Assembly: GCA_963968165.1 (NCBI GenBank)
Contig: CAXAFE010000012.1
Coordinates: 3,964 to 67,963 of the forward strand
Length of the DNA stretch: 64,000 nucleotides
Direction of reading: 5' to 3'
Source: an uncultured Candidatus Poseidoniales archaeon
Lineage (GTDB): Archaea > Thermoplasmatota > Poseidoniia > Poseidoniales > Thalassarchaeaceae
The position numbers and the translations under genes were made by a program. Position 1 is the first letter of the stretch, and each line of letters begins with the position of its first letter. The notes under the pieces are model-generated. The model was not told where the DNA came from. It searched no databases and saw only the letters and a program-made list of their open reading frames with translations. Positions 9,107 through 43,141 of the stretch are shown here, in pieces.

Positions 9107-9177
9107 TGTCCTTGCGGTGCATCATTAGATAATTTGCTTTGGGATTATTTTAGGAAAATATACGATTGATATTATCA

Positions 9178-21921: not shown

Positions 21922-22440
21922 ATGTCAGATGACTCTGAAGACATAGTTATGGAAAAGGAAGAAGAGCTTATTGAAGAGGAAATTGATCCCTTGGTTTCAA
22001 TGGCAGAAAAAATAAATGATTTGGAAAAGGAGTTACAATATTCTGCAGCAGAAATTATTAACATAAGACAAAGGTCAATCAGAGATAAAAACGAATTAAA
22101 TAAATATAGAAGTAGTACCTTGGCTATAAGATTATTCCCAATAATTGATAATTTAAAAAGGGCGATTAAAAGTACAATAAATGGAAAAAATATTTCTGAC
22201 TCCCTTATCGAGGGACTAAAGATGACATTGGATGGAATGGAAGATATACTCAAGGCGGAAGGAGTTGAGAAAATTAATATCGAAGATGATAAGTTTGATC
22301 CATCATATATGGAATCAATAGCATCAATATCTTGCCCCGAAGGCAAAAATCCAGGAGATGTTATTGAAATAATCGAAGAAGGTTATAAACTTCATGATAG
22401 AGTGTTGCGTGCGGCGAAGGTCATAGTTGCTGAAGGGTGA
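21922..22440 (+). CDS. grpE: Nucleotide exchange factor GrpE
   Basis: Acidic N-terminus and a coiled coil. C-terminal FDPSYMESI...GYKLHDRVLRAAKVIV matches the GrpE beta-domain pattern. Confidence 0.8.
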   Translation: MSDDSEDIVMEKEEELIEEEIDPLVSMAEKINDLEKELQYSAAEIINIRQRSIRDKNELNKYRSSTLAIRLFPIIDNLKRAIKSTINGKNISDSLIEGLKMTLDGMEDILKAEGVEKINIEDDKFDPSYMESIASISCPEGKNPGDVIEIIEEGYKLHDRVLRAAKVIVAEG

Positions 22441-22949
22441 AATTATTGTTAAAAATTATGAATTCAATTAGAGTTAAAGGTGTTTTATTTACTTTATTTA
22501 TTTATATTACCGCAATTATATCAATTCAATTAATTGCTCCTGATTCAGTAATTTATCCAGCTGAGTTTCCGGATAGTTGTCCTGAAAATTCCATGAATTG
22601 TACATACATAGGCTCTGTACCACATAGAGGAGATGGGAAAACTGAATTACGTTTTGATTCTAATTTTGATGAAGTAATTAATGGTGTAAAAGATTGGATA
22701 AATTTGCAACCTAGGACAGAAATTTTAGGAGAATGGGATAATCAAATTCATGCTGTTTTCAAGACATTGATTTGGAGATTTCCCGATGATTTTGCAATCA
22801 ATTTAAATTGTGAAAACGGTATTACTGTGATGTCCGTATATTCAAAATCAAGACTTGGTACTAGTGACCTAGGCGTAAATAATGATAGAGTAGAGGATTT
22901 CTCGGAACATATGTCAAATGTAGAATTATCTCCCTCGGAATGTAATTAA
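22437..22949 (+). CDS. DUF1499-like membrane-anchored protein
   Basis: N-terminal TM segment. WRFPDDF...SKSRLGTSDLGVNNDRVEDF resembles the DUF1499 signature. The GTG start overlaps the grpE stop. Confidence 0.5.
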   Translation: MKLLLKIMNSIRVKGVLFTLFIYITAIISIQLIAPDSVIYPAEFPDSCPENSMNCTYIGSVPHRGDGKTELRFDSNFDEVINGVKDWINLQPRTEILGEWDNQIHAVFKTLIWRFPDDFAINLNCENGITVMSVYSKSRLGTSDLGVNNDRVEDFSEHMSNVELSPSECN

Positions 22950-23008: not shown

Positions 23009-24028
23009 TTGCCTTCTGAATATTATACTGATGATACGATTTTTAAAAAAATAAAAGGACGAATGATGGAGGAATGGCATTTTTCAATTCACAAAAATGA
23101 GATATCAAATAATAATATAATCCCTATGAAAAATTCTCTGGAAATAATGGGGGAATCTATTGTTTTAGTGAAAGATGATGATATAAGAGCAATGTCTAAT
23201 GTTTGTACCCACAGGGGCATGATACTCAATACTGAAAATAATAATAGTAAAAATATGAAATGTAAATATCATGGTCGGAGTTTTACTTTGAAAGGTTGTA
23301 TACTTAATATGCCTGAATTTAAAGAGGTATTGGACTTTCCCAGTGAGATGGATAATTTAATTAATTTTCCAGTTCATATGTGGAAGGGTTTGTTATTTAT
23401 ATCTAGAATTGAAAAAGAACTTCCTCGGTGGTTAATAGAACTAGAAGATAGGTTAAGTTGGATGCCAATAGAGTCATTTAGATATGATAATTCTTATTAC
23501 AGGTCATATGATATTAAATCTAACTGGGCACTTTATGTTGATAATTATTTGGAAGGTTTTCATATACCATATGTTCATTCAGATCTTAATAAAATATTAG
23601 ATTATAATAATTATGAAACTGAATTATTTGAAGGAGGAGTTTTACAAATTGGAATTGCTAAAAAAGGAGAATCAATATTTAATTTGCCCCCAGAATCAAA
23701 GGATTATGGCAAGAATATAGCAGCATATTATTATTGGTTATTTCCAGGGATAATGATGAATTTCTATCCTTGGGGATTATCAGTAAATTTTGTTATTCCA
23801 ATGAGTATTGATAGTACAAAAATTGTTTATAAACGGTACATTTGGGATGAGGAATTGATTGGTAAAGGAGCAGGGGGAGATTTGGATAAAGTCGAAAAAG
23901 AGGATCAGGATATAGTAGAAGCTGTACAAAGGGGTGTATCGAGTAAATCATACACAAGAGGGAGATATTCTCCAACAATGGAAAAGGGAATTCATCACTT
24001 TCATAGGATTTTGACAAATTCTTTTTAG
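23009..24028 (+). CDS. Rieske [2Fe-2S] non-heme-iron oxygenase, alpha subunit (choline-monooxygenase-like)
   Basis: Rieske motif CTHRG...CKYHGRSF. The catalytic-domain block is NWALYVDNYLEGFHIPYVH. The frame stays open upstream to 22946, so the start is uncertain (TTG 23009). Confidence 0.8.
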   Translation: MPSEYYTDDTIFKKIKGRMMEEWHFSIHKNEISNNNIIPMKNSLEIMGESIVLVKDDDIRAMSNVCTHRGMILNTENNNSKNMKCKYHGRSFTLKGCILNMPEFKEVLDFPSEMDNLINFPVHMWKGLLFISRIEKELPRWLIELEDRLSWMPIESFRYDNSYYRSYDIKSNWALYVDNYLEGFHIPYVHSDLNKILDYNNYETELFEGGVLQIGIAKKGESIFNLPPESKDYGKNIAAYYYWLFPGIMMNFYPWGLSVNFVIPMSIDSTKIVYKRYIWDEELIGKGAGGDLDKVEKEDQDIVEAVQRGVSSKSYTRGRYSPTMEKGIHHFHRILTNSF

Positions 24029-24033
24029 AGTAT

Positions 24034-24291
24034 TTATCTTATTTTTATTACTCCAATTATGACCATCAATATGCATACTAATGCAGATATATTAGATATT
24101 ATTATTGCATAGGAAGAAACTAAGATACCATAAATAAGCCATAATAAAAGTGCTGCGGCTACTAACCAAAAAGTAGGTAGAGAAATGCCATCATGAGATT
24201 TATCTAACCATACCTTTCTAATTTGAGGTATCCATGCTATTACACCTAAAAAGCCCGCAAACAGGCCTATGGCTTCTATTGCAAAAGACAA
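24034..24291 (-). CDS. SemiSWEET / PQ-loop small membrane transporter
   Basis: 85 aa with three TM helices and the PQ motif (WIPQIRKVW). Confidence 0.7.
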   Translation of the reverse strand: MSFAIEAIGLFAGFLGVIAWIPQIRKVWLDKSHDGISLPTFWLVAAALLLWLIYGILVSSYAIIISNISALVCILMVIIGVIKIR

Positions 24292-24300
24292 TTAAATTCC

Positions 24301-25224
24301 TCATATATCATTTCTATCAACTTTTTTTCCTGAAGACCAATCATATATTCCAATATTAGTCTTTTTTCCAAGTTGACCTTTTCTTACTAAATTTTGAAGT
24401 AGAGGATGGGGCAAATATCCATCATCAGAAAATGACTTTGATAAGTTAGATAAAATGTCTGCCCTCACATCTAGACCAACTAGGTCAGATAGTTCCAGGG
24501 GCCCCATGGGGTGCCTATAGCCAAGCATCATTGCGGTATCGATATCACTAGCAGATGCAACGCCCTCTGCTAACATACGTATCGCTTCATTTCCCAGAAC
24601 TACGCCCAATCTACTTGTTGCAAATCCGGGAACATCATTGACCAATATTGTTTTTTTACCCATTTTTTTTCCAATCAATTCGGCAATTTTTATAGTTTCT
24701 TGGGAACAATCATCATGATGAACTATTTCTAAAAGTTTCATAATTGGAACAGGATTGAAAAAATGCATACCTATTACTCTATTAGGACAATTTGTACTAC
24801 TAGCTATTTCCGATATTGATAAACTTGAAGTATTGGTAGCTAAAATAGAATTTTTTGGTGCCAAACCCTCTATTTTGGAAAATAATTCTTTTTTTAAATC
24901 CATAATTTCTGGAATTGCTTCGATTATTAAATCGGATCCATCGACAGCGGTTGCAAGGTTGCTATGAGCTATCAAATTAGAATTCCATCTGATTTTTTCA
25001 TCTATGGATGTTTTGCCTAAAGTTATTCCTTTATCCCAAAAAGAGTTTATCCTAGAAATAGCACTTGTAAGACTTTTTTCATACGAGTCGAAAATTCTAG
25101 TCTCCCACCCGCACTGAGCAGAAATTTGGGCTATACCTGCCCCCATAGTTCCGGCTCCGATTACTGTGACCACTCTGACGTCCATATGCCTGACTTGGTA
25201 CTGTGGTCCATATGCATTACTCAA
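24301..25224 (-). CDS. 3-hydroxyacyl-CoA dehydrogenase (3-hydroxybutyryl-CoA dehydrogenase type)
   Basis: Rossmann VIGAGTMGAGIA, plus NTSSLSI, HFFNPVP and the C-terminal dimerisation domain pattern. Confidence 0.9.
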   Translation of the reverse strand: MSNAYGPQYQVRHMDVRVVTVIGAGTMGAGIAQISAQCGWETRIFDSYEKSLTSAISRINSFWDKGITLGKTSIDEKIRWNSNLIAHSNLATAVDGSDLIIEAIPEIMDLKKELFSKIEGLAPKNSILATNTSSLSISEIASSTNCPNRVIGMHFFNPVPIMKLLEIVHHDDCSQETIKIAELIGKKMGKKTILVNDVPGFATSRLGVVLGNEAIRMLAEGVASASDIDTAMMLGYRHPMGPLELSDLVGLDVRADILSNLSKSFSDDGYLPHPLLQNLVRKGQLGKKTNIGIYDWSSGKKVDRNDI

Positions 25225-25784
25225 TCTTGACGACCATAGGCGGCAAGGGCGGCTTGAAACAGTCTTTGTCTTGGAACATCATGTTCTAAGAAGCAAGTAA
25301 AGGGCGCAACATCCTTGAGTAATTCGATGGCACTTACGTATGCTCCATATATGAATGGGTCTGCGATATCTGTTGGAGGTATACTTATGCCTAATTTAAC
25401 AAGTCCTTTGCGCGTATCTTCATCCCATATCGCATAAGTATGATGTGTGAAATGTAAATAAGAAGATAATCTGTGAATATCAGATCTTGCATTTGATGTA
25501 AAACTATCGATTAATAATGTGTCAGGATATTTAATTGCATATAATGCTAGTTTTACTTCCCTTGTAGTTTCATCTTTCCATTCCCTATTTCCAAGTCCCA
25601 TCCAATTATCTATCATATCCAGCATATTATTATCATATGGCCTTTTAACCATATAAAGCAGCTTTTCATACTCATCAGGATTCTGTTGCTCAGAGTGATG
25701 ATGCTCGTAAAATAAATCTGTTAGATTATCAAAAAAGGGTTTACATTTTTCTTTATTAAAGGCTAGAAGCGATATATGTTGCAT
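25221..25784 (-). CDS. Hypothetical protein (His-rich), operonic with BoxB-like oxygenase
   Basis: 187 aa with no motif recognised. Overlaps the downstream dehydrogenase gene by 4 nt and lies 16 nt after the oxygenase gene. Confidence 0.5.
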   Translation of the reverse strand: MQHISLLAFNKEKCKPFFDNLTDLFYEHHHSEQQNPDEYEKLLYMVKRPYDNNMLDMIDNWMGLGNREWKDETTREVKLALYAIKYPDTLLIDSFTSNARSDIHRLSSYLHFTHHTYAIWDEDTRKGLVKLGISIPPTDIADPFIYGAYVSAIELLKDVAPFTCFLEHDVPRQRLFQAALAAYGRQD

Positions 25785-25800
25785 TTGCTCACCTTATCCC

Positions 25801-26952
25801 TTATTTTCCTTTCCATTCTCTATATTGAATCCAATCCTTTTTCATATAGTCATTCATGAGTTTTTCTTCATCTTCATCAGTCGGTAATACACTAATTAGA
25901 TAGTTTCCATATTCTTCATCTGTGCCCTCAAAACTTTCACCAGTTATAGTGTATTTTTCACCAGCATACATTCCTATTCCGCGATTAAATTTATCTGAGG
26001 GTATAAATAATTCGGGCTCTCCTTCTTTTCTTGCTGAGCTAATTCTACGCATTTCATCTCTTAATTCCTGGAAATATAAGTCTCTACTGGCTTCATTTAG
26101 ATGTTCTCTATCGGCGTCTATTTCACTCTCTCTTTCATCATACCTTCCCTTGACACCATAGACATAAGCCCATTGTGCACTAGTAGAGTCATCTGTTCCA
26201 AATAAATCTAATCCTGTGCTAATCCACTTATTCAAATATTTTTGGAGTAAAGCGCATGGTATTACTCCCTGCTTAACGATTCTCCTTAGCCCGTTTGCGC
26301 CTGTTCCAAGGTGGAATGATTCTTCCTTCAACATGGGACCCATTGAGGCAGCTAGGGGTTTGAAAGATGAGGTGCTCAGCATTTTTAGTTGGTATTTTCC
26401 ATCTCTATCTATGAAGTGAGTAAAGCAAAAGAAATCTAGCCAGTGATCTATCGGTGCATTGAAAGATCCTAGTATCCTAGTTCCCTCTTGCGCATTTCTC
26501 TCTAACAATTTGGAGGCTTCTCTAACTCCCTGTTCTCCAAAATATGTACAGAGGACATAGGCCATTTGCCATCCGTGGCGTTGCTCCTCGCACATAATTC
26601 GCAGGGCAGATTTTTTGTCGTATTCAGTAGGTGCTGTGTCAAGGAGGTGATTTTGTTGTTCTACGCTAGCAAACTCAGTATCCCCTTGTACTGATATCAT
26701 ACTAATTATTGCATCTCTAATATTTTGTTGGGGAATTTGCATGCGCCTTTCCCATTTCGGCATTCCTTCGAAGTCACCAAATTCGATTTGATTACCTGCT
26801 GTATCCCAGTCGAATTTGATATCAAATTTGTAATCTCCTAACCAAGACGGGTCAAAACCAATTCTTGTTTGCCAGTCATTAAAGTCATTAATCCATGCTT
26901 CAAAGTTGGTTGAATAATCTTCAACAATGTCTGTACGTGCCATCAGTTCCAC
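25801..26952 (-). CDS. Diiron (ferritin-like) oxygenase related to benzoyl-CoA oxygenase component B (BoxB) / PaaA family
   Basis: VQGDTEFASVEQQNHLLDTAP closely resembles the BoxB block TQGDTEPASVEQQRHL as I recall it. There are two ExxH-type diiron motifs, CEEQRHGW and KEESFHLG. At 383 aa it is shorter than BoxB as I recall it (~470 aa). Confidence 0.65.
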   Translation of the reverse strand: MELMARTDIVEDYSTNFEAWINDFNDWQTRIGFDPSWLGDYKFDIKFDWDTAGNQIEFGDFEGMPKWERRMQIPQQNIRDAIISMISVQGDTEFASVEQQNHLLDTAPTEYDKKSALRIMCEEQRHGWQMAYVLCTYFGEQGVREASKLLERNAQEGTRILGSFNAPIDHWLDFFCFTHFIDRDGKYQLKMLSTSSFKPLAASMGPMLKEESFHLGTGANGLRRIVKQGVIPCALLQKYLNKWISTGLDLFGTDDSTSAQWAYVYGVKGRYDERESEIDADREHLNEASRDLYFQELRDEMRRISSARKEGEPELFIPSDKFNRGIGMYAGEKYTITGESFEGTDEEYGNYLISVLPTDEDEEKLMNDYMKKDWIQYREWKGK

Positions 26953-27006
26953 CGAATAGTGATTAGTATAAAAATAAGTGTATGGAATGAGGAATAATAA
27001 ATTTTA

Positions 27007-27867
27007 TTATTTGCCCTTAAACCTGGGAGTTCTACGCTCAACATAGGAAGCTATGCCTTCCTTCGCATCCTCGGATTGGAATAAGTCTGATTGCAGTTCT
27101 CTCTCAAGGGCTAGGTGGGATTCTAAAGGAATTTCAATGCCACTTTGAACGCTTCTTTTGATATTACCGATTGCTTTTGCTGCAGCCAAGGGAAGTGTGA
27201 ATTGCCCAGCATAATCCAATACATCTGTTCTGAAGTCATCCAATCCTACGCTATCATAAATATCGTGAACTAAATCCATATCTCTCGCTTCTTCAAATGA
27301 AAATTTTCTACCGGTAACCATAATTTCCATGGCTCTTGCTTTACCAACTAAACGCGCTAATCTTGCTGTACCTCCAGTTCCAGCAAGAACTCCTAATGAG
27401 ACCTCAGGTAAACCAATTTGAAAATTTCCTTTATGTGCAATTCTTATGTCTGCAGCCATTGCAATTTCAAGTCCTCCGCCGACAGTATGGCCATTTAGAG
27501 CTGCAATGACTAATTTTGGAGTCTGTTCGAGCCTAGACAGAGTTTCATTTGCATGTAAACAAAAGAAATATTTGTATCTTGGAGATAGGGTATTGAGATA
27601 ATTTATACTAGCACCTGCTGAGAAAAATTTCTCACCATGCCCGGTGAGTAGAATTACTGAAACGTTTCCATCAAATCTAGCATCTAATATAGCATGATCT
27701 ATATCTTCCCACATCTCCCTAGTGTAAGTGTTAACGGGTGTTCTGGATTCGCTTAATGGTTTACCATCTGTATCTGATATGAGCTCAATAATTGCAATAC
27801 CATTATCGGTAACACCATAATTTACTAAATTATTAGGCATTGATTTTAGTTCGGGCCAAGATGTCAT
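27007..27867 (-). CDS. Enoyl-CoA hydratase/isomerase (crotonase) family protein
   Basis: Motifs are FFSAGASINYL, ALNGHTVGGGLEIAMAADIR and GLPEVSLGVLAGTGGT. I prefer ATG at 27867 over the track's TTG at 27900. Confidence 0.85.
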   Translation of the reverse strand: MTSWPELKSMPNNLVNYGVTDNGIAIIELISDTDGKPLSESRTPVNTYTREMWEDIDHAILDARFDGNVSVILLTGHGEKFFSAGASINYLNTLSPRYKYFFCLHANETLSRLEQTPKLVIAALNGHTVGGGLEIAMAADIRIAHKGNFQIGLPEVSLGVLAGTGGTARLARLVGKARAMEIMVTGRKFSFEEARDMDLVHDIYDSVGLDDFRTDVLDYAGQFTLPLAAAKAIGNIKRSVQSGIEIPLESHLALERELQSDLFQSEDAKEGIASYVERRTPRFKGK

Positions 27868-27921
27868 ATATGCGCCAGTATGATAAGTTATTTTAATCAA
27901 ACGGAAGATAGAGTACTGATA

Positions 27922-29148
27922 TTATGCATCAGTTTCGTTGAATGACAAGTTTGCCCCAGATTTTCTTACTTTATCCCATTGTTTCCCAATCTCAACAGCC
28001 TTAGCGCTTGGTTCCCATGAATCTCGCTTAAGGGCTTGTCTGAATGGCATTCGATTAACGGTACGGCCATCCGAAAGTTGTTTTTTCCTAAGCATTCCTC
28101 GCTTTACAAATGGCCATAATAATTTTCTAAAAATACCTGGAGAGTATAGCCAACGCATGAATGCTAAACCATCACCTTTACGTTTTTGATCCCACATCCA
28201 ATATCTTGCTGCTAATTTGAATCCTCTATCTCCCACTCGATTTAGAATAAAGCGATTAATGGCACTAGATTTAACCAAAGGAATTAGTCGTTTACGAATT
28301 TCAAATTCATAATTACATTCTCCGAGAATACCTTTTGCAGCAAGTACTCCACTAGTAATTGCATATCTCATTCCGAAGCCCCACATGAAATCTTGTAAAC
28401 CTCCGGCTTCCCCAACATAATATCGACCTTCATGAATATATTTTTCGGGTAAAGAAAAGTCACCTTTTCCTCCGACTCTCTTTATTGGACGGCGATTTAA
28501 ATCGTAATTATCTTCATACCAGGCGATAGTTTCATTCAAATATCTTCCACTCTTTTTTTGCTTACGCCAAAGACATGTGCAAATTAATCCAATTCCATCG
28601 ATTATTATCAAATAAGAATATGCTCCAGGCGCTAATTTATCATTTAATTGAAGAGTTACGTGATTTGGATGATCTGTGTGGAAAATTTCACCAAATGCAA
28701 CAGCGCTAGAATCTTTAGGGCCTGCAGCGATAATATCGCACTCTTCGGGATTTTTTCTTTCTCCATAGTGTATTTTCACGCCTGCTTCGACGGCCATACG
28801 CTTCATCCCTTGGTCTATGCAGTGTTCATCAGTACCTCTTTCTACGACTCTAAATGCTATTGATTCGGACCTTGGTTGAGTTATTTCACCATCTGGATGT
28901 GCTAAGTCAACTACATTAAATCCATCAGATTTGAAATAATCTGGATTTAGGCCCCAATCTCTCATTTCATCGAAAAAATCTGGTGAAGATGTCCAATTTT
29001 CAATTCCCTGAAAATCTCCATCAAAACGTGCACCACTATCCTTGCGAATATCATATACGTGTACTTCTTTTCCTGCATTAGCCAAAACTGTAGCTGCAGA
29101 AAGGCCTGACAAACCAGCCCCCAAAATATGAAGGGTATCTTGTGCCAT
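27922..29148 (-). CDS. FAD-dependent oxidoreductase, geranylgeranyl-reductase-like
   Basis: N-terminal dinucleotide fold ILGAGLSGLSAA...VHVYD, plus a basic C-terminal extension. Confidence 0.6.
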   Translation of the reverse strand: MAQDTLHILGAGLSGLSAATVLANAGKEVHVYDIRKDSGARFDGDFQGIENWTSSPDFFDEMRDWGLNPDYFKSDGFNVVDLAHPDGEITQPRSESIAFRVVERGTDEHCIDQGMKRMAVEAGVKIHYGERKNPEECDIIAAGPKDSSAVAFGEIFHTDHPNHVTLQLNDKLAPGAYSYLIIIDGIGLICTCLWRKQKKSGRYLNETIAWYEDNYDLNRRPIKRVGGKGDFSLPEKYIHEGRYYVGEAGGLQDFMWGFGMRYAITSGVLAAKGILGECNYEFEIRKRLIPLVKSSAINRFILNRVGDRGFKLAARYWMWDQKRKGDGLAFMRWLYSPGIFRKLLWPFVKRGMLRKKQLSDGRTVNRMPFRQALKRDSWEPSAKAVEIGKQWDKVRKSGANLSFNETDA

Positions 29149-33034: not shown

Positions 33035-35593
33035 GTGTCTAATCATTTCAGTGGTAACTCTACAGGAGATGCAATTAATACACCAAAAAAGATCCGGAGT
33101 AAACATAGATTGAGAATGATGTTGAGGCTGTCTGAAGGAGAGGAGACAGTCAGTGATTTGGCTAAGTTAGTAGGATTAAGAGTGCCTCATGCATCAGCTG
33201 AAATAAGGAAAATGAGAGAAGAAAGTTTGGTAACAAGTGACCTACCAGTAGGATCTAGGGGTGCAAAAATGAGTTTAACAGATAATGGTTGGAATGTTTT
33301 GCAAACTGATGAATGGTCTAAAGCATTAGTAGCACTTCCTCTTCCACGTGAGATTGACAAATATACTATTTTATATCGTGATAAAACAGATATATTATTT
33401 GCATTTTTGGATAAACCAAACGAACCAATGATAATGATACCCGACCGCATGCCGGGTTCCACTGGAAATGATGGGGTTTCATGGAGTTGGGCCAGCCTTA
33501 ATGAATCCGGGCCTAGGTGGTTTAATTTGGATAGTATGGAAATAAGTTTGGAATCTCCCGTAAAGCCGGATCCCCAAAGTATTGATGCATATTCCAAACG
33601 ACCTCGAATAATAGGAATAATTAGAGGAAAAGTACTGAATAATAAAGCGGCAATAACAGCCTCAGTAGGTAAGTGGTTTAGCGCTCCTAGCGATAGGCAT
33701 GGAACTCCACTAACAGAAACCTCTTACCATAGAGGAATTTGGAAATTAGGTAAGAGTCATGAAATGATTCCATTGATAAAACCAAAAAACCCCATAGTAG
33801 GAATTATGAAAGATAGTTTGTATAAATCGATGCTACTAAGAACTGCCAAGAGAAATGCTTTGGTGATAGGAGATTTGAGAGGTTTGGATTCCGGAGGGAC
33901 AATGTATCCATTAGATGTACTGGAATACTGGATAGAAATTTCTCATCCGAGAATAACTATACAAGATAGAAAGAGAAGGTTAACAGCGCTAAAGGATAAA
34001 ATAGTAAGAAATAAACGTGTTAGAGTCTCAGATTCCACTTGGAGGAAATTCAGAAAAGATTGGGGGGCAAGTTCCTTTTCTCAAGAAAAATATTCAAAAA
34101 ATATAGATATTAGGGGGCTCAACAGGATTCCAATAGAGTCCCTGATTCGCTGGTCGATAGAAAATGAGAGTCATGTACCATTGGTTCTAGAAATTAAAAA
34201 TAAAATATCTGAAAGTACACTATCTCTAATCACATCTCACTCAAATTTGAGACTGATAATACTTGAGAATATGATATCAGGATTTGAAAATTATGACATA
34301 TTAGAGATGAATAAATTTAGACCATTGCCTTGGTTAAATTTCAGAACAAAAGATGGTACATTGCCATTAAAATTAATTGAAAGTCAGTATGAAGATGAAG
34401 AATATCAAAGTAAAGTTAAACTCACTGTAACGCCATGGGAAATAAGAAATATAGAAATGAAGAGTGATTTCATACCTGAAGAGTTAAATGAAGATTATTA
34501 TTCAATGGTAAAATCATCGATATCTCAATATCCCCTTGGCGATGAAGAATGGGCAAATCAAATAGAGGCCAAATATCCTTTAGCATCATGGATAGCATCA
34601 CCCCCCTCTGGTAGATGGCCAAGGTGGCAAAGATTGAGAAATAGACTTGATTCAGAATGGTTAGCACTACTTGATCTGGATCATTTGCCAATTGAAAGAT
34701 TGGTTGAAGTGGCTAATGAAGCGCCTATTTCTGTTCTAAATATATTTTCTGAAGAAATGAAATACAAATTAAGGGAAGATTCAGATATTTTTTTACGATC
34801 TAGGCCTGCAATAGATTCCAATAGCGCGTCGCCTGGCGTTTCATGGATAGCAGGTCAATTCCTTTCCAGTGTTGCTTGGATGCCGGAAAATATACATAAT
34901 GACATTCTAGAATGGGCAATAAATGCTTGGGTTAAAAATCCACCAATTGACTCTCTTCAAGCAATTAAAGGCATTTATTGGCTTTACAACAAAGAACAAA
35001 AAAATAGAATTAAATTAGATGAGATGATGATGAAATTTAAAAATAAAAATAAAGATATATCTGATGATAATATATTAAAAATTTGGTCAGATATGATTGA
35101 TATGATAGTCGAAAAAAAGGAATTAAAAAAACAGGATTTACAATTGGTTGTAAAAAGATTACCTCCAGATTGGTGGGCGATACATGCTCAAAATTTACTG
35201 CGAAAGGCGTTGAAGAATGAGAATATGAAATGGTTATTAAGCATGGATCTACCTTGGTGTTCAACGATAATGAGAAGGAAGGGGGAGGAGGTGGATGTCC
35301 CGGGAATTTCTTCAAAAAATCACCCAGGTTGTGATTTTTCCATATATGATGATTTGAAGATGGAGATATCTAATATTGAAAATAATTCTATTCTTGATTT
35401 ATTTGAATCTTTACATTCCTCAATTAATATGGTCAAACCCAAGATAGGCAGGACTCATGAGTTAGTTGGATGGCTTGCCCAACCTATCGAAAAATGGCCT
35501 GATTTTACTCAAAAGGAAATATCAAATGGAGAAGTTGATATTATGAAGAGAATTATGCTTAGAAAGACTAGTTTTTCATATAAAAAAAATTAA
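33035..35593 (+). CDS. Large orphan protein with N-terminal ArsR/MarR-like winged HTH
   Basis: GTG start 8 nt after GGAGGA. Residues ~25-70, RLRMMLRLSEGEETVSDLAKLVGLRVPHASAEIRKMREESLV, fit an HTH. The remaining ~780 aa are W-rich and helical toward the C-terminus, with no motif I recognise. Confidence 0.6.
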   Translation: MSNHFSGNSTGDAINTPKKIRSKHRLRMMLRLSEGEETVSDLAKLVGLRVPHASAEIRKMREESLVTSDLPVGSRGAKMSLTDNGWNVLQTDEWSKALVALPLPREIDKYTILYRDKTDILFAFLDKPNEPMIMIPDRMPGSTGNDGVSWSWASLNESGPRWFNLDSMEISLESPVKPDPQSIDAYSKRPRIIGIIRGKVLNNKAAITASVGKWFSAPSDRHGTPLTETSYHRGIWKLGKSHEMIPLIKPKNPIVGIMKDSLYKSMLLRTAKRNALVIGDLRGLDSGGTMYPLDVLEYWIEISHPRITIQDRKRRLTALKDKIVRNKRVRVSDSTWRKFRKDWGASSFSQEKYSKNIDIRGLNRIPIESLIRWSIENESHVPLVLEIKNKISESTLSLITSHSNLRLIILENMISGFENYDILEMNKFRPLPWLNFRTKDGTLPLKLIESQYEDEEYQSKVKLTVTPWEIRNIEMKSDFIPEELNEDYYSMVKSSISQYPLGDEEWANQIEAKYPLASWIASPPSGRWPRWQRLRNRLDSEWLALLDLDHLPIERLVEVANEAPISVLNIFSEEMKYKLREDSDIFLRSRPAIDSNSASPGVSWIAGQFLSSVAWMPENIHNDILEWAINAWVKNPPIDSLQAIKGIYWLYNKEQKNRIKLDEMMMKFKNKNKDISDDNILKIWSDMIDMIVEKKELKKQDLQLVVKRLPPDWWAIHAQNLLRKALKNENMKWLLSMDLPWCSTIMRRKGEEVDVPGISSKNHPGCDFSIYDDLKMEISNIENNSILDLFESLHSSINMVKPKIGRTHELVGWLAQPIEKWPDFTQKEISNGEVDIMKRIMLRKTSFSYKKN

Positions 35594-35619: not shown

Positions 35620-35917
35620 TCTTTAGTGGCTATTCTGTGGGTTTATTGCCCATACGGCAACACCGTCATGACGAAATCACCACGCCGGAGGTTTAGGATG
35701 AATGACGGTACCACGTTTTGGGAAACCACTTGTCGAAGACCATAGTGACTGAAAAGAATGAGCTATGGAGCAAAACAAGTGGCCGGATTGTGATAGGTCC
35801 CCAGAGGACTGAAAGGAATGAATCAAGGGACTACCGCACAGTCCGACAGACGTCCCGGGGTGGGTCAGGCGCCAGAGTTAACACAATGAAGGTGACCGTT
35901 ACACCCCGGGGTACAGC
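35620..35917 (+). ncRNA. GC-rich structured RNA of unassigned family (divergent RNase P/SRP RNA or novel)
   Basis: GC jumps here (37/60 in 35821-35880). At least six hand-drawn helices are present, including a 9-bp CCCGGGGUG/CACCCCGGG and nested CCACUUGU/ACAAGUGG plus CCAUAG/CUAUGG. G-U pairs favour the + strand. An A/T-rich TATA-like tract at ~35586-35600 lies upstream. Ends are approximate. Confidence 0.6.
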
Positions 35918-35946: not shown

Positions 35947-36987
35947 ATGCATGAACTTGGCCTAATTGGAGGGACTTTTGATAGATTTCATATCGGCCAT
36001 AAGAAATTAATAACTACTGCATTAAAGAAGTGTCAAAGATTAGAAATATGGATATTATCAGATTCTATAGCTAAGAGTAAAAATTTTAATATAAATAATT
36101 GGGATACAAGAAAAAATGAAATTATAGACAACCTTGATTCTAATCTAATAGATAGAATTGAGTTTGGAATATTAAATGATGACTATGGGCCAGCTCCATC
36201 TCATCCAAAGGCTACAGCAATAATATGTAGTGAAGAGACTTTGGAAATTTGTATAAAAATTAATAAAATAAGAAAAAATAAGTTATTGAACGCCTTGGAC
36301 ATTATTGAAGTTGGACATGCATTAGCATGGGATAAACGACCAGTTTCAAGTACAAGAATTAGAAATGGAGAAATTGATAGAAATGGTGACCATTGGAAAA
36401 TTAAATTAAAAAGGGGTGATACAATTTCTTATTGGAATGATGAATTATTAAAAATGACAAAAGAGGTTGAATATCTACTCAAGGAACCATTCGGAGAGTT
36501 GTTTGAAGGGCCGGAAGATAATCCAGAAATTGCAATGAATAAGATTATCAAGAAGTATGGTAATTTTGAATCCCAATTAATTGCAGTCGGCGATGTATCT
36601 GTATTGACTTTAGAAAAATTAAATCGGCCACCAGATATAGCAATTATAGATGGTAAAACAAAAAGAATAAAATGGATTGATTCCGAACTAATTAAACATA
36701 AAAATTATGATAGGGTGGTTTATTGCATTAATCAACCAGGGGAAATAACAAAATCATTATTTAATCAATGTAGGGAATCAATAAAATATTATATCGAAGA
36801 AGAAAAGACTAGTCTAATAATAATTGATGGAGAGGAAGATCTAGCCCCACTACTAATTCATCTCCTAGCTCCATTAAACACCATAGTTTTGTATGGGCAA
36901 CCGGACCGAGGAGTAGTTGTTAGAATCACAACAGAAGATGTAAAAAAGAGCTGTAAACAGATATTAGAAAAATTTGAGATAAAATAG
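35947..36987 (+). CDS. Fusion of phosphopantetheine adenylyltransferase (archaeal PPAT) and GTP-dependent dephospho-CoA kinase (DUF359-type)
   Basis: The N-terminal nucleotidyltransferase signature is GGTFDRFHIGH. The C-terminal half carries LIAVGDVSVLTL...PPDIAIIDGKTKR, typical of the DUF359/archaeal DPCK family. Confidence 0.7.
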   Translation: MHELGLIGGTFDRFHIGHKKLITTALKKCQRLEIWILSDSIAKSKNFNINNWDTRKNEIIDNLDSNLIDRIEFGILNDDYGPAPSHPKATAIICSEETLEICIKINKIRKNKLLNALDIIEVGHALAWDKRPVSSTRIRNGEIDRNGDHWKIKLKRGDTISYWNDELLKMTKEVEYLLKEPFGELFEGPEDNPEIAMNKIIKKYGNFESQLIAVGDVSVLTLEKLNRPPDIAIIDGKTKRIKWIDSELIKHKNYDRVVYCINQPGEITKSLFNQCRESIKYYIEEEKTSLIIIDGEEDLAPLLIHLLAPLNTIVLYGQPDRGVVVRITTEDVKKSCKQILEKFEIK

Positions 36988-37584: not shown

Positions 37585-38829
37585 CTACAATTGTGATTGA
37601 AGTTTATATTTGCCCATAGATGCTTCATTGACCAACGGTTCATGTTCACTCATCAGCGATATAGCATCGATTGCTTTTGGTATTGCTGAATTCACTTGTT
37701 TGCTTCTTCCCCCACGGCCCTTACTGACATTTCTAGCCATTATTAGTCCTAATGTATCCAGTTCGTTCAGGAGTGCTGAAACCCTCCTAGTTGTGAGTGG
37801 ATCTACTTGAATCTTGAAGCAAGCATCTGAATATGTACGATATATATCTCCAGTTATTATATTTCGTAAACCATTTTGTTCATTGAGACATACCGAAAAT
37901 AAAACTAATTTCTGATGTAATGGTAATGTTTTGAGGACTGGAGTTACTTGATCATATTCAAGTTGACTTTGTGCCATCTTAACGTGTCTAGTATCTACCT
38001 TGATCTGAGAACTTTGTTCCGCTTTTTGTACTGAAATACGTAGGAGATCTAATGCCCTTCTTGCATCGCCGTGTTCTTGTGCGGCCAGTGCGGCACATAA
38101 ATCAACTACCCCGGTTTTTAATACCTCTAATTTTAACCCAGTCTCTACTCTCTCGGAGAGTATATTTTTTATTTCTAATGCTCCATAAGGATGAAAGACA
38201 ATGTCTTCTTGACTTAATCTTGATGTCACCCTTGGATCTAATTGTTGAGTAAAATTCAAATCGTTACTTATTCCAATTATACAACATCGAGCATTTTTTA
38301 ATCTAGTGTTAAGATTTGTTAAATTATACAGCAACCCATCGCCGGCCCTCGAAACTAAATTATCGATTTCATCAAGGACTATTATGTGGACTCCTCCGAG
38401 TCTATCCATTCGATGTATTAGAGTGTCTAGGACGCGATCGGTTGGCCATCCAGTGAATGGAATTACTTGGTCTCCTCTTTCATTAAGTTGGGACGCCATA
38501 TATTGGACAACTCTGTATTTAGTATCAATACTTCTGCAATTAATTTCATAGGTGCAGACATTCTGATTTAACTCACTACCTTTCTCTCTGAGTTGCGCCA
38601 ATACATACCTTGTTACTACGGTCTTACCAGCCCCTGGTACACCATATAGTAGCATATTTGAAGGAATATGCCCTTGTAATGCATCCACTAGATTTTTTAC
38701 TAGTGAACCAACTTCGTGTTCACGGTGTGGAAGACGTGAGGGTTCGAAGCCGTGTTCGAATGCTTTTCTATCAACAAACAAGCTTTCTTGTCCGAGAATT
38801 TTTTCAAAAATATTCCCATCCATAATCAA
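37585..38829 (-). CDS. cdc6: Orc1/Cdc6 replication initiator
   Basis: AAA+ Walker A YGVPGAGKT, Walker B IIVLDEIDNL, sensor regions, and a C-terminal winged helix (...LNELDTLGLIMARNVSKGRGGRSKQ). Confidence 0.95.
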   Translation of the reverse strand: MIMDGNIFEKILGQESLFVDRKAFEHGFEPSRLPHREHEVGSLVKNLVDALQGHIPSNMLLYGVPGAGKTVVTRYVLAQLREKGSELNQNVCTYEINCRSIDTKYRVVQYMASQLNERGDQVIPFTGWPTDRVLDTLIHRMDRLGGVHIIVLDEIDNLVSRAGDGLLYNLTNLNTRLKNARCCIIGISNDLNFTQQLDPRVTSRLSQEDIVFHPYGALEIKNILSERVETGLKLEVLKTGVVDLCAALAAQEHGDARRALDLLRISVQKAEQSSQIKVDTRHVKMAQSQLEYDQVTPVLKTLPLHQKLVLFSVCLNEQNGLRNIITGDIYRTYSDACFKIQVDPLTTRRVSALLNELDTLGLIMARNVSKGRGGRSKQVNSAIPKAIDAISLMSEHEPLVNEASMGKYKLQSQL

Positions 38830-38995
38830 TCAAAGCCGTTATTATTATACTATAAAGCACATATTTATCTTACCTAGTAAATTGCGCGCAAGCATATGTC
38901 TTCAAGCGAGTAAGTCAAAGATAATAAGTGTGACTTAGGAGATTGAATTATGAACAATTTTTATGCACCTTAAATAGGAAAAAAAAACATATTAA

Positions 38996-39793
38996 TTAAA
39001 ATAATTTTTTACAAATTTTAAAGGTACCATCATCAGATAAATCAAGAAAATCCCCATCTTCCAATTGATGAACGCTATTTGGAAGATTTGGAATTATGAA
39101 TCCATTGTCACTGGCAATTCCACGTGCATAGGAATGAGTTACTAGAATTGATTTACCTGGAAATCTTTTGGAAAAGGATATGACATCTTTTGGAGTATGA
39201 TGGTATGGAAAATCACCAATATCGGGCATACCCATTTCCAATATTATGACGTCTGCTGATTTAGCCCTAACTTCTATTTCATTGCAGGGTCCTGAGTCAC
39301 CACAATGTAGTACAGAAAAACCATTTTTATGAGTTAGCAAATAACCATGAGGATCTGTTTCTGGAGTATGGCAAACTGAAAATCTCTCGTATTTCCAATC
39401 AGTACCTGAAATTATAGATTTTTCATCTTCATTCCAATTTATCATGGAATCATAATCATTCTCTAAACTCCCAGGGAATCCAAGATTGCATAGAGTGGTC
39501 AGGAAATTTTTACCATTTGGCCTAAGATGCAATGTTAATTTATTTCCTTCTTTTGACGTAGGAATATACTTTCTTTCAAGTAAGAAAAATGGAAAACCGA
39601 AAGTATGGTCAGCGTGCCAATGAGTGAATAGTATGTGAGTAATAGCTGAAGGTTCAATCCCACTACATCGTAACTGATAAATGAGACTAGGGGGCGCGTC
39701 AATTATTATTTTTTTATCTATGACGGCTAGAGCATGAAGTCTTCCAGGAGGACTGAATGCATTACCGGTACCAAGAAAGTCGATACGGGCCAT
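38996..39793 (-). CDS. Metallo-beta-lactamase-fold hydrolase
   Basis: HWHADH metal-binding motif, with later conserved H/D positions (HCGDSG, THSY). Confidence 0.75.
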   Translation of the reverse strand: MARIDFLGTGNAFSPPGRLHALAVIDKKIIIDAPPSLIYQLRCSGIEPSAITHILFTHWHADHTFGFPFFLLERKYIPTSKEGNKLTLHLRPNGKNFLTTLCNLGFPGSLENDYDSMINWNEDEKSIISGTDWKYERFSVCHTPETDPHGYLLTHKNGFSVLHCGDSGPCNEIEVRAKSADVIILEMGMPDIGDFPYHHTPKDVISFSKRFPGKSILVTHSYARGIASDNGFIIPNLPNSVHQLEDGDFLDLSDDGTFKICKKLF

Positions 39794-39918
39794 GGTTCTC
39801 GACTAAGGGCTTATGACTTTACTTAATCGCTTGCAATAGTGTAATTTGTCTAATCTTTCCTTGCATCCATTGATAAACTGGTTTCATCTCGGTCGACTCA
39901 AGAAAAAGGTGTGTCAAA

Positions 39919-41754
39919 TTGTCTGAAACTCGTTCAATACTAATTCTCTATGGGTCCCAATCTGGTAACTCTGAAGATATTGCAATGCAAACTGGTAATC
40001 AATCTAAGAATCACAACTTAGAACCCGTCATTAGGTCAATGGATGAGATAACAATCTCGGATTTGACTAATCAAAAAAGAGTTCTTATTTGTTGTAGCAC
40101 ATGGGGAGATGGAGAGCAACCGGATAATGCAGAAGATTTGTGGGAGGAAGCCAACAATTCTTCCATCAGTTCCTTGGAGGGACTTCATTTTTCAGTGCTT
40201 GCACTCGGAGATTCTTCCTATGATCTATTTTGTGAATCTGGAAAAGAATGGGATAAATGGTTAGAGTCAAAGGGTGCCACAAGAATACACGATCGTGTAG
40301 ATTGTGATGTAGATTTCGAAGAGCCAGCTCAAGAATGGTCAAATGCTGTTCTAGAAAAAATGGAAAAAATTGAAAATGATAAACTTGTTATTGATAATGA
40401 TGTAATAAACGACATACCGGTTATCGAAGATAAAATAGAAAAAGTAGTTCCTGAAAAAAAGGATATAGACAAAAAAATGCAATGGAGCGCTAAAAACCCA
40501 TTTATATCCAAACTTACAGAAAATTATGTTTTAAATGGTGAAAATTCAGGTAAAGAAACTCGCCATATAGTTTTCAATTTAGGAGATTCAAAATTAGAAT
40601 ACAAAGCAGGTGATGCATTGGGAGTGATACCTATCTGTCCACCCGAAATTGTAGACAGGCTTCTATTATTGTGTAATTTTCATGGAGATGAGGAAGTTGA
40701 GACAAATTTAGGCATTTGTACAATAAGAGAGGCATTATCCACTAGATATGAAATTCATAGAGTATCCAAAAAATGGATTAATATGTTAGGAAATCATATA
40801 AACAGTGATTCTGAGAAAATAGAGTTTAAAATTGTGAAAAGACAACGAACTTCAGAAGAAAGTGGTGCATTAATGATTGATTGGGAAGGCACAGGGAATG
40901 GAGAAGATACCCCTCCGGATTATTTGGAGATCGGGGCTATAAGTAGTCCTAGTTCTGAACTTTGGAATAAACTGACCACCGAGGTTGATGCGATGGAAGA
41001 TTATATGTGGACCAGGGATTATGTAGATGCACTTGAAGATTTCAATGAAATTATATTCACTCCTCAAGAATTTATTAATGGGATGGATAGATTGAAACCT
41101 AGATTATATTCCATCGCGAGTAGTCCTGACTTTGAGCCAGGTACGGTTCATTTAACTGTAGGAATTGTAAGATATAGTTATCATGATAGAGATAGAGCAG
41201 GCCTAACTACCGGATATCTTTCCGACCGGTGTGAAGTTGAAGATACACCTATTGGAGTTTTCATGTCTCCAACTAGATCATTCATTCTTCCAAAAAATGG
41301 AGATGATGATTGCATAATGGTTGGACCCGGAACAGGGATTGCACCATTTAGAGCATTTCTTCAACAGCGTGACATAAATAATGACAAAGGTAGAAATTGG
41401 TTATTCTTTGGAGATTGGACAGAAGAAGGAGAAAATTACTACAAAGAAGAAATGGATGATTGGAAGCAACGAGGAGTCCTTACCAAACATGATCTTGCAT
41501 GGTCCAGAGATGGTTCGGAAAAAGTCTATGTGCAACATCTAATGGAAAAAAATGGTAAAGAAATATGGAACTGGATAGATAATGGTGGTTATTTTTATGT
41601 CTGTGGAGATAAATCTAGAATGGCTAAAGACGTACATAAAACTTTGATTAGAATATGTGAAAATCATGGTAATATGACAAATACCGATGCCATAGAATAC
41701 GTCGAAACGACCCTAATGAAATCAGAAAAAAGATATCTTAGAGATGTATACTGA
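39919..41754 (+). CDS. Diflavin reductase (CysJ / cytochrome-P450-reductase-like: flavodoxin + FAD/NADPH domains)
   Basis: TTG start. FMN domain ILILYGSQSGNSE...LGDSSY. FAD-binding RLYSIASSP. NADPH-binding MVGPGTGIAPFRAF. The C-terminus is RYLRDVY. Confidence 0.85.
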   Translation: MSETRSILILYGSQSGNSEDIAMQTGNQSKNHNLEPVIRSMDEITISDLTNQKRVLICCSTWGDGEQPDNAEDLWEEANNSSISSLEGLHFSVLALGDSSYDLFCESGKEWDKWLESKGATRIHDRVDCDVDFEEPAQEWSNAVLEKMEKIENDKLVIDNDVINDIPVIEDKIEKVVPEKKDIDKKMQWSAKNPFISKLTENYVLNGENSGKETRHIVFNLGDSKLEYKAGDALGVIPICPPEIVDRLLLLCNFHGDEEVETNLGICTIREALSTRYEIHRVSKKWINMLGNHINSDSEKIEFKIVKRQRTSEESGALMIDWEGTGNGEDTPPDYLEIGAISSPSSELWNKLTTEVDAMEDYMWTRDYVDALEDFNEIIFTPQEFINGMDRLKPRLYSIASSPDFEPGTVHLTVGIVRYSYHDRDRAGLTTGYLSDRCEVEDTPIGVFMSPTRSFILPKNGDDDCIMVGPGTGIAPFRAFLQQRDINNDKGRNWLFFGDWTEEGENYYKEEMDDWKQRGVLTKHDLAWSRDGSEKVYVQHLMEKNGKEIWNWIDNGGYFYVCGDKSRMAKDVHKTLIRICENHGNMTNTDAIEYVETTLMKSEKRYLRDVY

Positions 41755-41765
41755 ATAATTAAATG

Positions 41766-41791
41766 TCTCCTTACATTCCAGTGTAAGGAGA
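41766..41791 (+). terminator. Perfect 10-bp hairpin downstream of the reductase gene that also sequesters the accC Shine-Dalgarno
   Basis: TCTCCTTACA-ttccag-TGTAAGGAGA. The 3' arm contains AAGGAGA, 7 nt before the accC ATG (41798). Confidence 0.5.
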
Positions 41792-41797
41792 TATTAG

Positions 41798-43141
41798 ATG
41801 TTTCGACGTGTGCTAATCGCAAATAGAGGAGAAATAGCTCTTAGAATATTAAGATCTCTTCGTTCTATGAATGTCGAAGTAGTTATGATTTATGGCAAAG
41901 ATGATAGGTTATCTTTACCAGTCAGATTGGCAGATGAAGCAATATATATTCCACATAGCGATCCTTTGGCATCGTACTTAGATATAGAGAAAATAGTGCA
42001 AATAGCAGTAAATATTGGCGCTGATGCTGTGCACCCTGGTTATGGCTTTTTGGCCGAGAATCCTACATTCGCCAGAAGATTAGATGAAGAAGGTATAAAA
42101 TTTATTGGACCGAATGAAAAAGTCCTTAGACTCTTAGGAGATAAAATTTCCGCAAGGGAACTAATGAGTAAAGCCGGTCTGCCAATCGCCAAAGGGACTA
42201 ACAAGCCAGTAGAAAGTCTGGAGCAGGCACTCGGGGCTGCAAGAGACATAGGTTTTCCACTAATAATCAAAGCAGCTGCCGGAGGAGGAGGTATTGGAAT
42301 GCAAATAGTAGAATACGAAAATGATTTTGAGAGTGCTTTGAATCTCTGCCAGGGTAGGGCTTTGTCTGCATTTGGAGATGATAGAGTATTCATAGAGAAA
42401 TTTATTGAGGGTGCGCAGCATATAGAATTTCAAGTTTTAGCAGATGGTAAGGATGCAATATATTTTGGAGAACGATGTTGTTCAATCCAGAGGCGGCACC
42501 AAAAAATTATTGAAGAGGGGCCATGGTTATCGGAAGATGTCAGGAGAAAAATTGGAGAAATCGTTGTTCAAGGTGCAAAGTCTGTCAATTATGAAGGCCT
42601 GGCTACATTTGAATTTCTAAGAGATAAAAATGAAGATTTTTATTTTTTAGAAGTCAATCCAAGAGTACAAGTCGAGCACACTGTAACAGAAATGATTGCA
42701 GGGGTTGACCTCGTTGCGTTAGGTGTAAGAATTGCTGCAGGAGAAAAAATATCTCTCAAACAAGATGATATTTCGCTGAATGGGCATGCTATCCAAGTAA
42801 GAATTAATGCAGAAAATTCCTCCACATTGGAACCTTCTCCTGGTAAAATTTGGGAATGTATTTGGCCTGGAGGGCAAGGTGTTAGAATAGATTCACACGT
42901 ACATACTGGATACAATATACCCTCGTCATTTGATTCCTTAATTGCAAAAATAATATGTTGGGGGCCAACAAGAAATGATGCCATAAATAAAATGAGGGCC
43001 GCACTTGATGAGGTGATTTTGACAGGTGTAGATACATTAATTCCTTTACATAAAAATATATTAAACGAAGTAGATTTTAATAATCGTGATATAACAATTA
43101 ATTACTTAGAAGAACACCCAGAACTAATGGAGAGAAAATAG
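41798..43141 (+). CDS. accC: Biotin carboxylase (AccC / PycA-type)
   Basis: Motifs are RVLIANRGEIALRI, the ATP-grasp KAAAGGGGIGMQIV, and EVNPRVQVEHTVTE. Confidence 0.95.
   Translation: MFRRVLIANRGEIALRILRSLRSMNVEVVMIYGKDDRLSLPVRLADEAIYIPHSDPLASYLDIEKIVQIAVNIGADAVHPGYGFLAENPTFARRLDEEGIKFIGPNEKVLRLLGDKISARELMSKAGLPIAKGTNKPVESLEQALGAARDIGFPLIIKAAAGGGGIGMQIVEYENDFESALNLCQGRALSAFGDDRVFIEKFIEGAQHIEFQVLADGKDAIYFGERCCSIQRRHQKIIEEGPWLSEDVRRKIGEIVVQGAKSVNYEGLATFEFLRDKNEDFYFLEVNPRVQVEHTVTEMIAGVDLVALGVRIAAGEKISLKQDDISLNGHAIQVRINAENSSTLEPSPGKIWECIWPGGQGVRIDSHVHTGYNIPSSFDSLIAKIICWGPTRNDAINKMRAALDEVILTGVDTLIPLHKNILNEVDFNNRDITINYLEEHPELMERK

Follow-up and report, generated by a model that had tools for sequence, protein, structure and literature searches.

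Marine Group II archaea (MGII; Poseidoniales) rank with the most abundant archaea of the plankton and are very numerous in the surface ocean, yet they are uncultured, and what they use as carbon sources has been inferred almost wholly from genomes. Here we analyse a 64,000-nucleotide (nt) stretch, referred to below as the window, from an uncultured Candidatus Poseidoniales archaeon of the family Thalassarchaeaceae (assembly GCA_963968165.1, contig CAXAFE010000012.1, positions 3,964 to 67,963). Our subject is a gene for a short diiron oxygenase related to BoxB, which we call BoxBL, together with the gene directly downstream for an orphan partner protein, unk187. The features of the locus are listed below, with lengths in amino acids (aa) and with open reading frames abbreviated as ORFs.

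27922-29148, minus strand: FAD flavoprotein with a PHBH / geranylgeranyl-reductase (GGR) fold, 408 aa (Rossmann matches; AlphaFold (AF2) model and Foldseek)
27007-27900, minus strand: crotonase (enoyl-CoA hydratase), 297 aa (PF00378, 159.8 bits)
26953-27006, minus strand: spacer with the TATA-like box TTATTTTTATAC (26977-26966), probable BoxBL-unk187 promoter
25801-26952, minus strand: short BoxB-family diiron acyl-CoA oxygenase (BoxBL), ORF of 383 aa (PF05138, TIGR03225)
25221-25784, minus strand: orphan partner protein (unk187), 187 aa, all-helical, no family match
24301-25224, minus strand: 3-hydroxyacyl-CoA dehydrogenase, 307 aa (PF02737, 186 bits; PF00725, 101 bits; NF006722, 312 bits)
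24034-24291, minus strand: SemiSWEET (PQ-loop) transporter, 85 aa (PF04193 and NF037968)
39919-41754, plus strand: CysJ/CPR-type diflavin reductase, 611 aa (flavodoxin and FNR domains), candidate donor only

A first-pass annotation had described four packed minus-strand genes, from the crotonase to the dehydrogenase, and the ORF coordinates agree with it: the gaps are 54 and 16 nt, and the dehydrogenase ORF shares 4 nt with that of unk187. The same-strand run extends beyond these four, with the flavoprotein gene 21 nt upstream of the crotonase gene and the SemiSWEET gene 9 nt downstream of the dehydrogenase gene. Profile searches returned the families proposed earlier (PF00378 for the crotonase, PF05138 for the diiron protein, PF02737 and PF00725 for the dehydrogenase, none for the 187-aa protein), and the motifs VQGDTEFASVEQQNHL, CEEQRH and KEESFH were all found in the 383-aa protein. 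The most likely start codon of BoxBL is the ATG at 26943, for a protein of 380 aa instead of 383, because its homologues are 380-381 aa long and an RNA contig ends at 26944.

BoxBL belongs to PF05138 (PaaA_PaaC), which it matched with 52.8 bits over residues 75-262, above the gathering threshold of 28.5 bits. It had been likened to either BoxB or PaaA, and the resemblance to BoxB proved the stronger. The BoxB profile TIGR03225 gave 208.9 bits over profile positions 63-328 of 471, and the best solved structure was Azoarcus BoxB (PDB 3PER, E = 2.3e-46, residues 36-276), whereas the PaaA profile TIGR02156 gave 43.8 bits, below its cut-off of 280 bits. In BoxB the diiron centre is held by Glu120, Glu150, His153, Asp211, Glu240 and His243, and the benzoyl pocket is formed by Gln116, Thr119, Ser123, Phe193, Phe203, Phe206 and Thr210 (PMC5489048). 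The diiron ligands had been named beforehand as one place where the first reading could fail; in our alignment all six are kept, as E93, E123, H126, D182, E211 and H214 of BoxBL. Six of the seven pocket residues are kept as well (Q116, T119, S123, F193, F203 and F206 in BoxB numbering), the sole change being at Thr210, which adjoins the ligand Asp211 and is Ile in BoxBL. We tabulated these positions in 122 aligned sequences, which included 76 Poseidoniales copies (39 from Thalassarchaeaceae and 37 from Poseidoniaceae). The iron ligands and the six other pocket residues are invariant in 39/39 Thalassarchaeaceae, and F206Y is the single difference at these positions in the 37 copies from Poseidoniaceae.

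Missing from BoxBL are BoxB's N-terminal segment and C-terminal tail, together with two internal insertions; the shortfall of about 90 aa given in the first-pass annotation was close to the ~95 aa that we obtained by comparison. In a maximum-likelihood tree, the Poseidoniales sequences and a few others from Thermoplasmatota formed a supported clade (99/99), and other proteins of ~365-390 aa fell unresolved between this clade and canonical BoxB. A short-form relative among the representative-library matches, P0286 (367 aa), has all six iron ligands replaced (QADCH, QENVTS, VNLCAK, QQHGEH) and may be a non-catalytic, PaaC-like derivative.

To follow the gene neighbourhood we took one genome per species, which gave 80 loci. 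A homologue of unk187 lies immediately downstream of the oxygenase gene in 78 of them, or in 78 of the 79 that are informative: at one of the two remaining loci the contig ends inside the oxygenase gene, and at the other, from Gemmatimonadota (L080), a gene of the glycerophosphodiester-phosphodiesterase (GDPD) family occupies the slot (9103-9771) within a Paa/Box-like lower-pathway operon. The module core consists of two genes, those for the oxygenase (25801-26943) and the Thermoplasmatota-specific unk187 (25221-25784). Three loci titled Salinimicrobium, Rhodobiaceae and Deltaproteobacteria (L040, L046 and L074) carry a Poseidoniaceae-type oxygenase, partner, HTH_10 regulator and EamA transporter at MGIIa-level identities and are probably mis-binned archaeal contigs; L076, titled Proteobacteria, groups likewise with the metagenome-assembled Thermoplasmatota genome L079.

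The partner itself resembles nothing that we searched. As had been noted from its letters, the 187-aa protein has no recognisable motif: the single sequence gave no match in Pfam, NCBIfam or the PDB sequences, and neither Pfam searches with all 22 family members nor a 22-sequence profile against the PDB gave anything significant. Its AF2 model (pLDDT 80, pTM 0.75) is all-helical with 12 helices, and Foldseek returned no PDB match for it (best E = 0.63). We considered unk187 as a diverged PaaB, PaaC or PaaD, or as a piece split off from BoxB, and rejected this at hhalign probabilities of 0.1-2%. With 313 clusters, compared with 5130 for the oxygenase, the unk187 family is small, and ten residues are invariant in its wider alignment (F17, Y39, P87, H111, F112, L128, G132, K157, E167 and R174). 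His-rich motifs had also prompted us to consider a metalloenzyme. This was abandoned: H115, H168 and D169 of the Thalassarchaeaceae protein are absent from Poseidoniaceae and there is no conserved Cys pattern, so that a metal or Fe-S cofactor site in unk187 appears unlikely. Between MGIIa and MGIIb, identity is only 26-30% for unk187, compared with 56-66% for the oxygenase, crotonase, dehydrogenase and flavoprotein; such fast divergence of unk187 would fit an accessory protein.

The pair also stands out at the RNA level. The centre of the TATA-like box precedes the ATG at 26943 by ~27 nt, and a similar box is found at the same distance in most Thalassarchaeaceae loci examined. Marine metatranscriptome contigs of at least 99% identity cover 25372-26944; they cross the oxygenase-unk187 junction in three runs, and the X1 contig ends at 26944. 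BoxBL and unk187 thus probably form a leaderless transcript from a promoter of their own, its start being placed by the box and the contig end rather than mapped. The oxygenase was detected in seven of eight runs and unk187 in X9, so that one or other gene of the pair appeared in 8/8. The crotonase, flavoprotein and dehydrogenase were represented by single RNA pieces only, and in the runs whose contigs cover 25372-26944 the other coding regions, compared across 61 kb of the window, were all covered less fully. In a Red Sea mdRNA-seq report (PMC5069720), MG-II boxB is named among the highly expressed genes, with which our detection of RNA agrees. The deepest contig coverage in the window (depth 186 in X1, 58 in X3 and 14-16 in X5, X7 and X9) fell elsewhere, on a GC-rich intergenic stretch of ~200 nt at 35657-35866 in this AT-rich genome, between the ORFs at 33035-35593 and 35947-36987. 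Rfam gave no match to this stretch at E<=0.01, and no tRNA lies in it; two similar 'GACTGAAA(A/G)GAATGA' segments occur there, and it is probably an abundant unclassified small RNA.

Beyond the pair, conservation is looser. The synteny check showed that the neighbourhood is conserved across Poseidoniales, and the packing proposed for a four-gene operon is real; strict conservation of the four as a unit is not, since it applies only to the oxygenase and unk187, which have a probable promoter of their own. In both MGII families the dehydrogenase gene comes next after the pair at most loci, with an EamA transporter gene inserted between unk187 and the dehydrogenase in Poseidoniaceae. The crotonase-flavoprotein pair adjoins BoxBL in Thalassarchaeaceae only; in Poseidoniaceae it lies 3-5 kb off on the opposite strand, the flavoprotein gene being always beside the crotonase gene in both families. 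A second crotonase gene, paired with one for an aldehyde dehydrogenase (ALDH), is found 1-6 kb downstream at most loci from Poseidoniaceae and at roughly half of those from Thalassarchaeaceae. The best NCBIfam match of this second crotonase is 'oxepin-CoA hydrolase, alternative type' (158 bits, cut-off 300). The Gemmatimonadota operon runs from TetR through a crotonase, ALDH, a 3-oxoadipyl-CoA thiolase (558 bits, below the 605 cut-off) and a PaaG-like crotonase to the oxygenase, and continues with the GDPD gene, a PaaH-like dehydrogenase, a PaaF-like crotonase, an amidohydrolase and a transporter.

Other elements of these neighbourhoods vary with lineage. In Poseidoniaceae locus L063 (~7945-7975), and also in L035, L039 and L065, a conserved duplicated palindrome, AACATGTTCG-N3-GAACATGTTCG, lies upstream of the oxygenase ATG, between this gene and that of the HTH_10 regulator. 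The palindrome is likely to be an operator for the HTH_10 regulator, which suggests that the module could be inducible in Poseidoniaceae. The SemiSWEET gene occurs in many Thalassarchaeaceae loci. In the window two plus-strand genes converge on it, one for a Rieske oxygenase alpha subunit (23009-24028) and one for a 170-aa protein (22437-22949); they hold this SemiSWEET-facing position only in a subset of close relatives, the others having the crotonase-ALDH pair after the cluster.

We also examined what the flanking enzymes are. The best PDB matches of the crotonase are generic hydratases (2PPY, E = 6e-62, and 5ZAI), and its translation holds both catalytic Glu motifs, GGGLE and GLPEV. BoxC was not among its 25 best NCBIfam matches or the 40 listed PDB matches (E<=1e-20), and its 297 aa compare with ~550 aa for the two-domain BoxC. 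The first-pass assignment to the crotonase fold was sound; by these matches the crotonase is an ordinary enoyl-CoA hydratase and no BoxC analogue. The dehydrogenase is likewise an ordinary enzyme of its kind. The flavoprotein gave N-terminal Rossmann matches and a weak TIGR02032 match. Its AF2 model (pLDDT 82.7) found the GGR-like protein Ta0516, flavin halogenases and monooxygenases, and FixC as top Foldseek matches. With a PHBH/GGR-type fold, and not that of an FNR or Fe-S reductase, it gained no support as a substitute for BoxA; no known diiron reductase has such a fold.

Taken together, the observations probably point to a so far uncharacterised O2-dependent catabolic route for a CoA-linked acid, likely an aromatic one. 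Membership of the BoxB family, the full set of ligands in a nearly complete pocket, the conservation of the gene pair and its transcription are established. We favour, at about even confidence, the view that the locus encodes an aryl-CoA epoxidase/hydroxylase module with unk187 as a new accessory subunit and an electron donor other than BoxA, because the ligands are intact, the benzoyl pocket is nearly complete and genes of a Paa/Box-type lower pathway surround the homologues. Epoxidation or hydroxylation of a CoA thioester, as proposed in the first-pass annotation, is a reasonable suggestion. In such a scheme the oxygenase would take an acyl-CoA as its substrate, most probably an aroyl-CoA similar in shape to benzoyl-CoA, and Gln89 would touch the thioester. 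The diiron centre would be reduced by the non-BoxA donor, for example a general ferredoxin/flavodoxin system, and would then activate O2 and epoxidise or hydroxylate the substrate. The part of unk187 would be in assembly, docking or as an effector, not in catalysis. The product would pass to crotonase-family enzymes and an aldehyde dehydrogenase, which are beside the module in most relatives and elsewhere or absent here, and β-oxidation-type steps could follow by way of the adjacent enoyl-CoA hydratase and 3-hydroxyacyl-CoA dehydrogenase. A more specific version is a tentative possibility, which we hold with less confidence than the general one: a strongly transcribed minimal aryl-CoA epoxidase, independent of BoxA and BoxC, that belongs to the Poseidoniales core, combines a short BoxB with a unk187 of new fold and draws on a general flavin reductase.

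The CysJ-like protein at 39919-41754 is a candidate donor only. It scored 501 bits against TIGR01931 (cut-off 668), lies 13 kb from BoxBL, and is among the few coding genes besides BoxBL for which transcripts were assembled, in two runs from one sample. We rejected it as a linked partner: in the four Poseidoniaceae loci where it is near the oxygenase, a conserved Cdc6-reductase-accC block accounts for this. In the window this block (37585-43141) comprises Cdc6, a metallo-beta-lactamase-fold gene, the diflavin reductase and a biotin carboxylase; the order is kept in Poseidoniaceae locus L037, where the block from Cdc6 to biotin carboxylase stands directly before the HTH_10-oxygenase module.

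A number of points weigh against the aryl-CoA assignment. The substrate class, the electron donor, the role of unk187 and the link to the flanking enzymes are all inferred from sequence. The RNA evidence consists of assembler contigs, not reads, and speaks for presence and continuity, not quantity. The diflavin reductase was not detected in five other runs, so that its co-expression comes from a single sample. The score of BoxBL against TIGR03225 is below the BoxB equivalog cut-off (208.9 versus 499.1 bits), and canonical BoxB forms its own clade (100/99), apart from the Thermoplasmatota clade that holds BoxBL. Because the ligands are intact and the pocket nearly so, the score is below the cut-off and the clade is separate, we regard BoxBL as a genuine, ligand-complete BoxB-family protein that is not a BoxB equivalog. 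By tblastn over the window and the 80 loci we found no BoxA- or PaaE-type reductase and no PaaB, PaaC or PaaD, in line with the earlier statement that no BoxA is adjacent to the oxygenase, and among the genes examined, which were those of the neighbourhoods, there was no two-domain BoxC and no aromatic CoA ligase.

BoxB works with the reductase BoxA and the lyase BoxC, which are usually encoded together (boxABC). If BoxBL were simply the oxygenase of an ordinary BoxABC pathway, whose genes for BoxA, BoxC and a benzoate-CoA ligase lay elsewhere in the genome, this would agree with the JGI/KEGG label (benzoyl-CoA 2,3-dioxygenase component B) and with a catalytic core very close to that of BoxB; our partner searches covered gene neighbourhoods only, so distant partners could exist. 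We nevertheless consider this distinctly unlikely, given the 209 bits against a 499-bit equivalog cut-off, the clade apart from canonical BoxB, the missing N-terminal segment, insertions and C-terminal tail, the 0/80 loci with a BoxA/PaaE-like match, and the different, lineage-specific partner gene that is fixed beside the oxygenase.

The altered pocket residue raises the question of the substrate. Position 210 is Ile in the 39 Thalassarchaeaceae copies and Val in the 37 from Poseidoniaceae, and Thr in the canonical-length BoxB representatives; with the replacement fixed, substrate or chemistry may therefore differ from those of BoxB. The window is without the oxepin-hydrolase-like crotonase-ALDH pair. 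Possibly, though doubtfully, BoxBL instead hydroxylates or desaturates a non-aromatic acyl-CoA that is branched, isoprenoid-derived (phytanoyl-like) or alkane-derived; its product would go to the adjacent hydratase and dehydrogenase, and the GGR-like flavoprotein would reduce an unsaturated isoprenoid acyl chain. Generic β-oxidation enzymes on the flanks, the GGR/PHBH fold of the upstream flavoprotein, the exchange of Thr210 for a hydrophobic Ile or Val, and the lack of any aromatic CoA ligase, BoxA or BoxC seen nearby would all suit such an activity. MGII archaea have been described as degraders of lipids and proteins. A preprint also cites an MGII response to cyanobacterial pentadecane. A non-aromatic substrate is harder to reconcile with the six ring-positioning BoxB residues out of seven that are kept, three of them Phe, or with the ties of the Gemmatimonadota and most Poseidoniales homologues to an oxepin-hydrolase-like crotonase, ALDH and 3-oxoadipyl-CoA thiolase; moreover, in Poseidoniaceae the oxygenase gene and the flavoprotein-crotonase pair do not adjoin.

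Finally, two loci from Thermoplasmatota outside MGII, L073 and L076, had no β-oxidation enzyme among the neighbouring ORFs scanned, and because of this the association with the flanking enzymes may be lineage-specific synteny. If so, the oxygenase and unk187 could form an independent unit outside CoA-ester catabolism, for instance a biosynthetic or protective diiron enzyme, with flanks that are inherited synteny. The probable separate promoter of the pair, its transcript far better represented than those of its neighbours, the surroundings in L073 and L076, and the displaced crotonase and flavoprotein genes of Poseidoniaceae would be expected of such a unit. We think it improbable all the same: the dehydrogenase gene shares 4 nt with unk187 and in both families mostly comes after the pair, the Gln116 by which BoxB holds the CoA thioester is kept along with the other pocket residues except Thr210, and the bacterial homologue in L080 sits inside a CoA-ester operon.

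Databases label the oxygenase gene boxB or 'phenylacetic acid catabolic protein', and the label boxB over-assigns its function. We found no study of MGII boxB beyond the passing mention of high expression in PMC5069720. The first-pass annotation had called the route undescribed; this is correct for the biochemistry only, since the databases already carry the boxB label and PMC5069720 had noted the high MG-II expression. New here are the position-210 signature, the 78/79 pairing count, the contrast in rate between partner and neighbours, the finding that unk187 is not related to PaaB, PaaC or PaaD, and the evidence from promoter and RNA continuity. A conserved and transcribed O2-dependent CoA-ester oxygenase offers a testable handle on the diet of MGII, possibly including aromatic acids from phytoplankton. 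For enzymology, a fixed change from Thr to Ile or Val beside an iron ligand, the absence of BoxA and an obligate partner with no fold match would widen the range of soluble diiron oxygenase architectures. If the minimal aryl-CoA epoxidase is real, it would represent an unrecognised archaeal sink for aromatic dissolved organic matter as well as a new architecture of this kind.

Among known systems, PDB 4MUD, a 235-aa 'ring oxidation complex / phenylacetic acid degradation related protein', is likewise a short member of the family and matches BoxBL residues 63-227 (E = 5e-20); it is far shorter than BoxBL and, as an uncharacterised structural-genomics entry, uninformative on partners. With PaaABCDE of Escherichia coli (PaaA, 3PVR; TIGR02156), BoxBL has in common the Pfam family PF05138, the multi-subunit logic of a catalytic diiron subunit that needs non-catalytic partners and, in its relatives, a downstream crotonase resembling the 'alternative oxepin-CoA hydrolase' with an ALDH. 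It differs in its PaaA score (44 bits, cut-off 280), in the lack of a PaaE-like reductase in the window and the 80 loci, and in a partner whose hhalign probability to PaaB, PaaC or PaaD is at most 2%. The closest relation is to BoxB of Azoarcus/Aromatoleum evansii (3PER, 3PM5; TIGR03225). Both have the ferritin-like diiron fold, the same six iron ligands and the pocket Gln, Thr, Ser and three Phe, and a BoxB-sized representative homologue is 39% identical to BoxBL. BoxBL, however, is ~95 aa shorter than BoxB, being without its two internal insertions, N-terminal segment and C-terminal tail, has Ile/Val for Thr210, scores below the cut-off and belongs to a separate clade; and where BoxB has BoxA and BoxC, BoxBL has neither nearby and is paired with an unrelated 187-aa protein.

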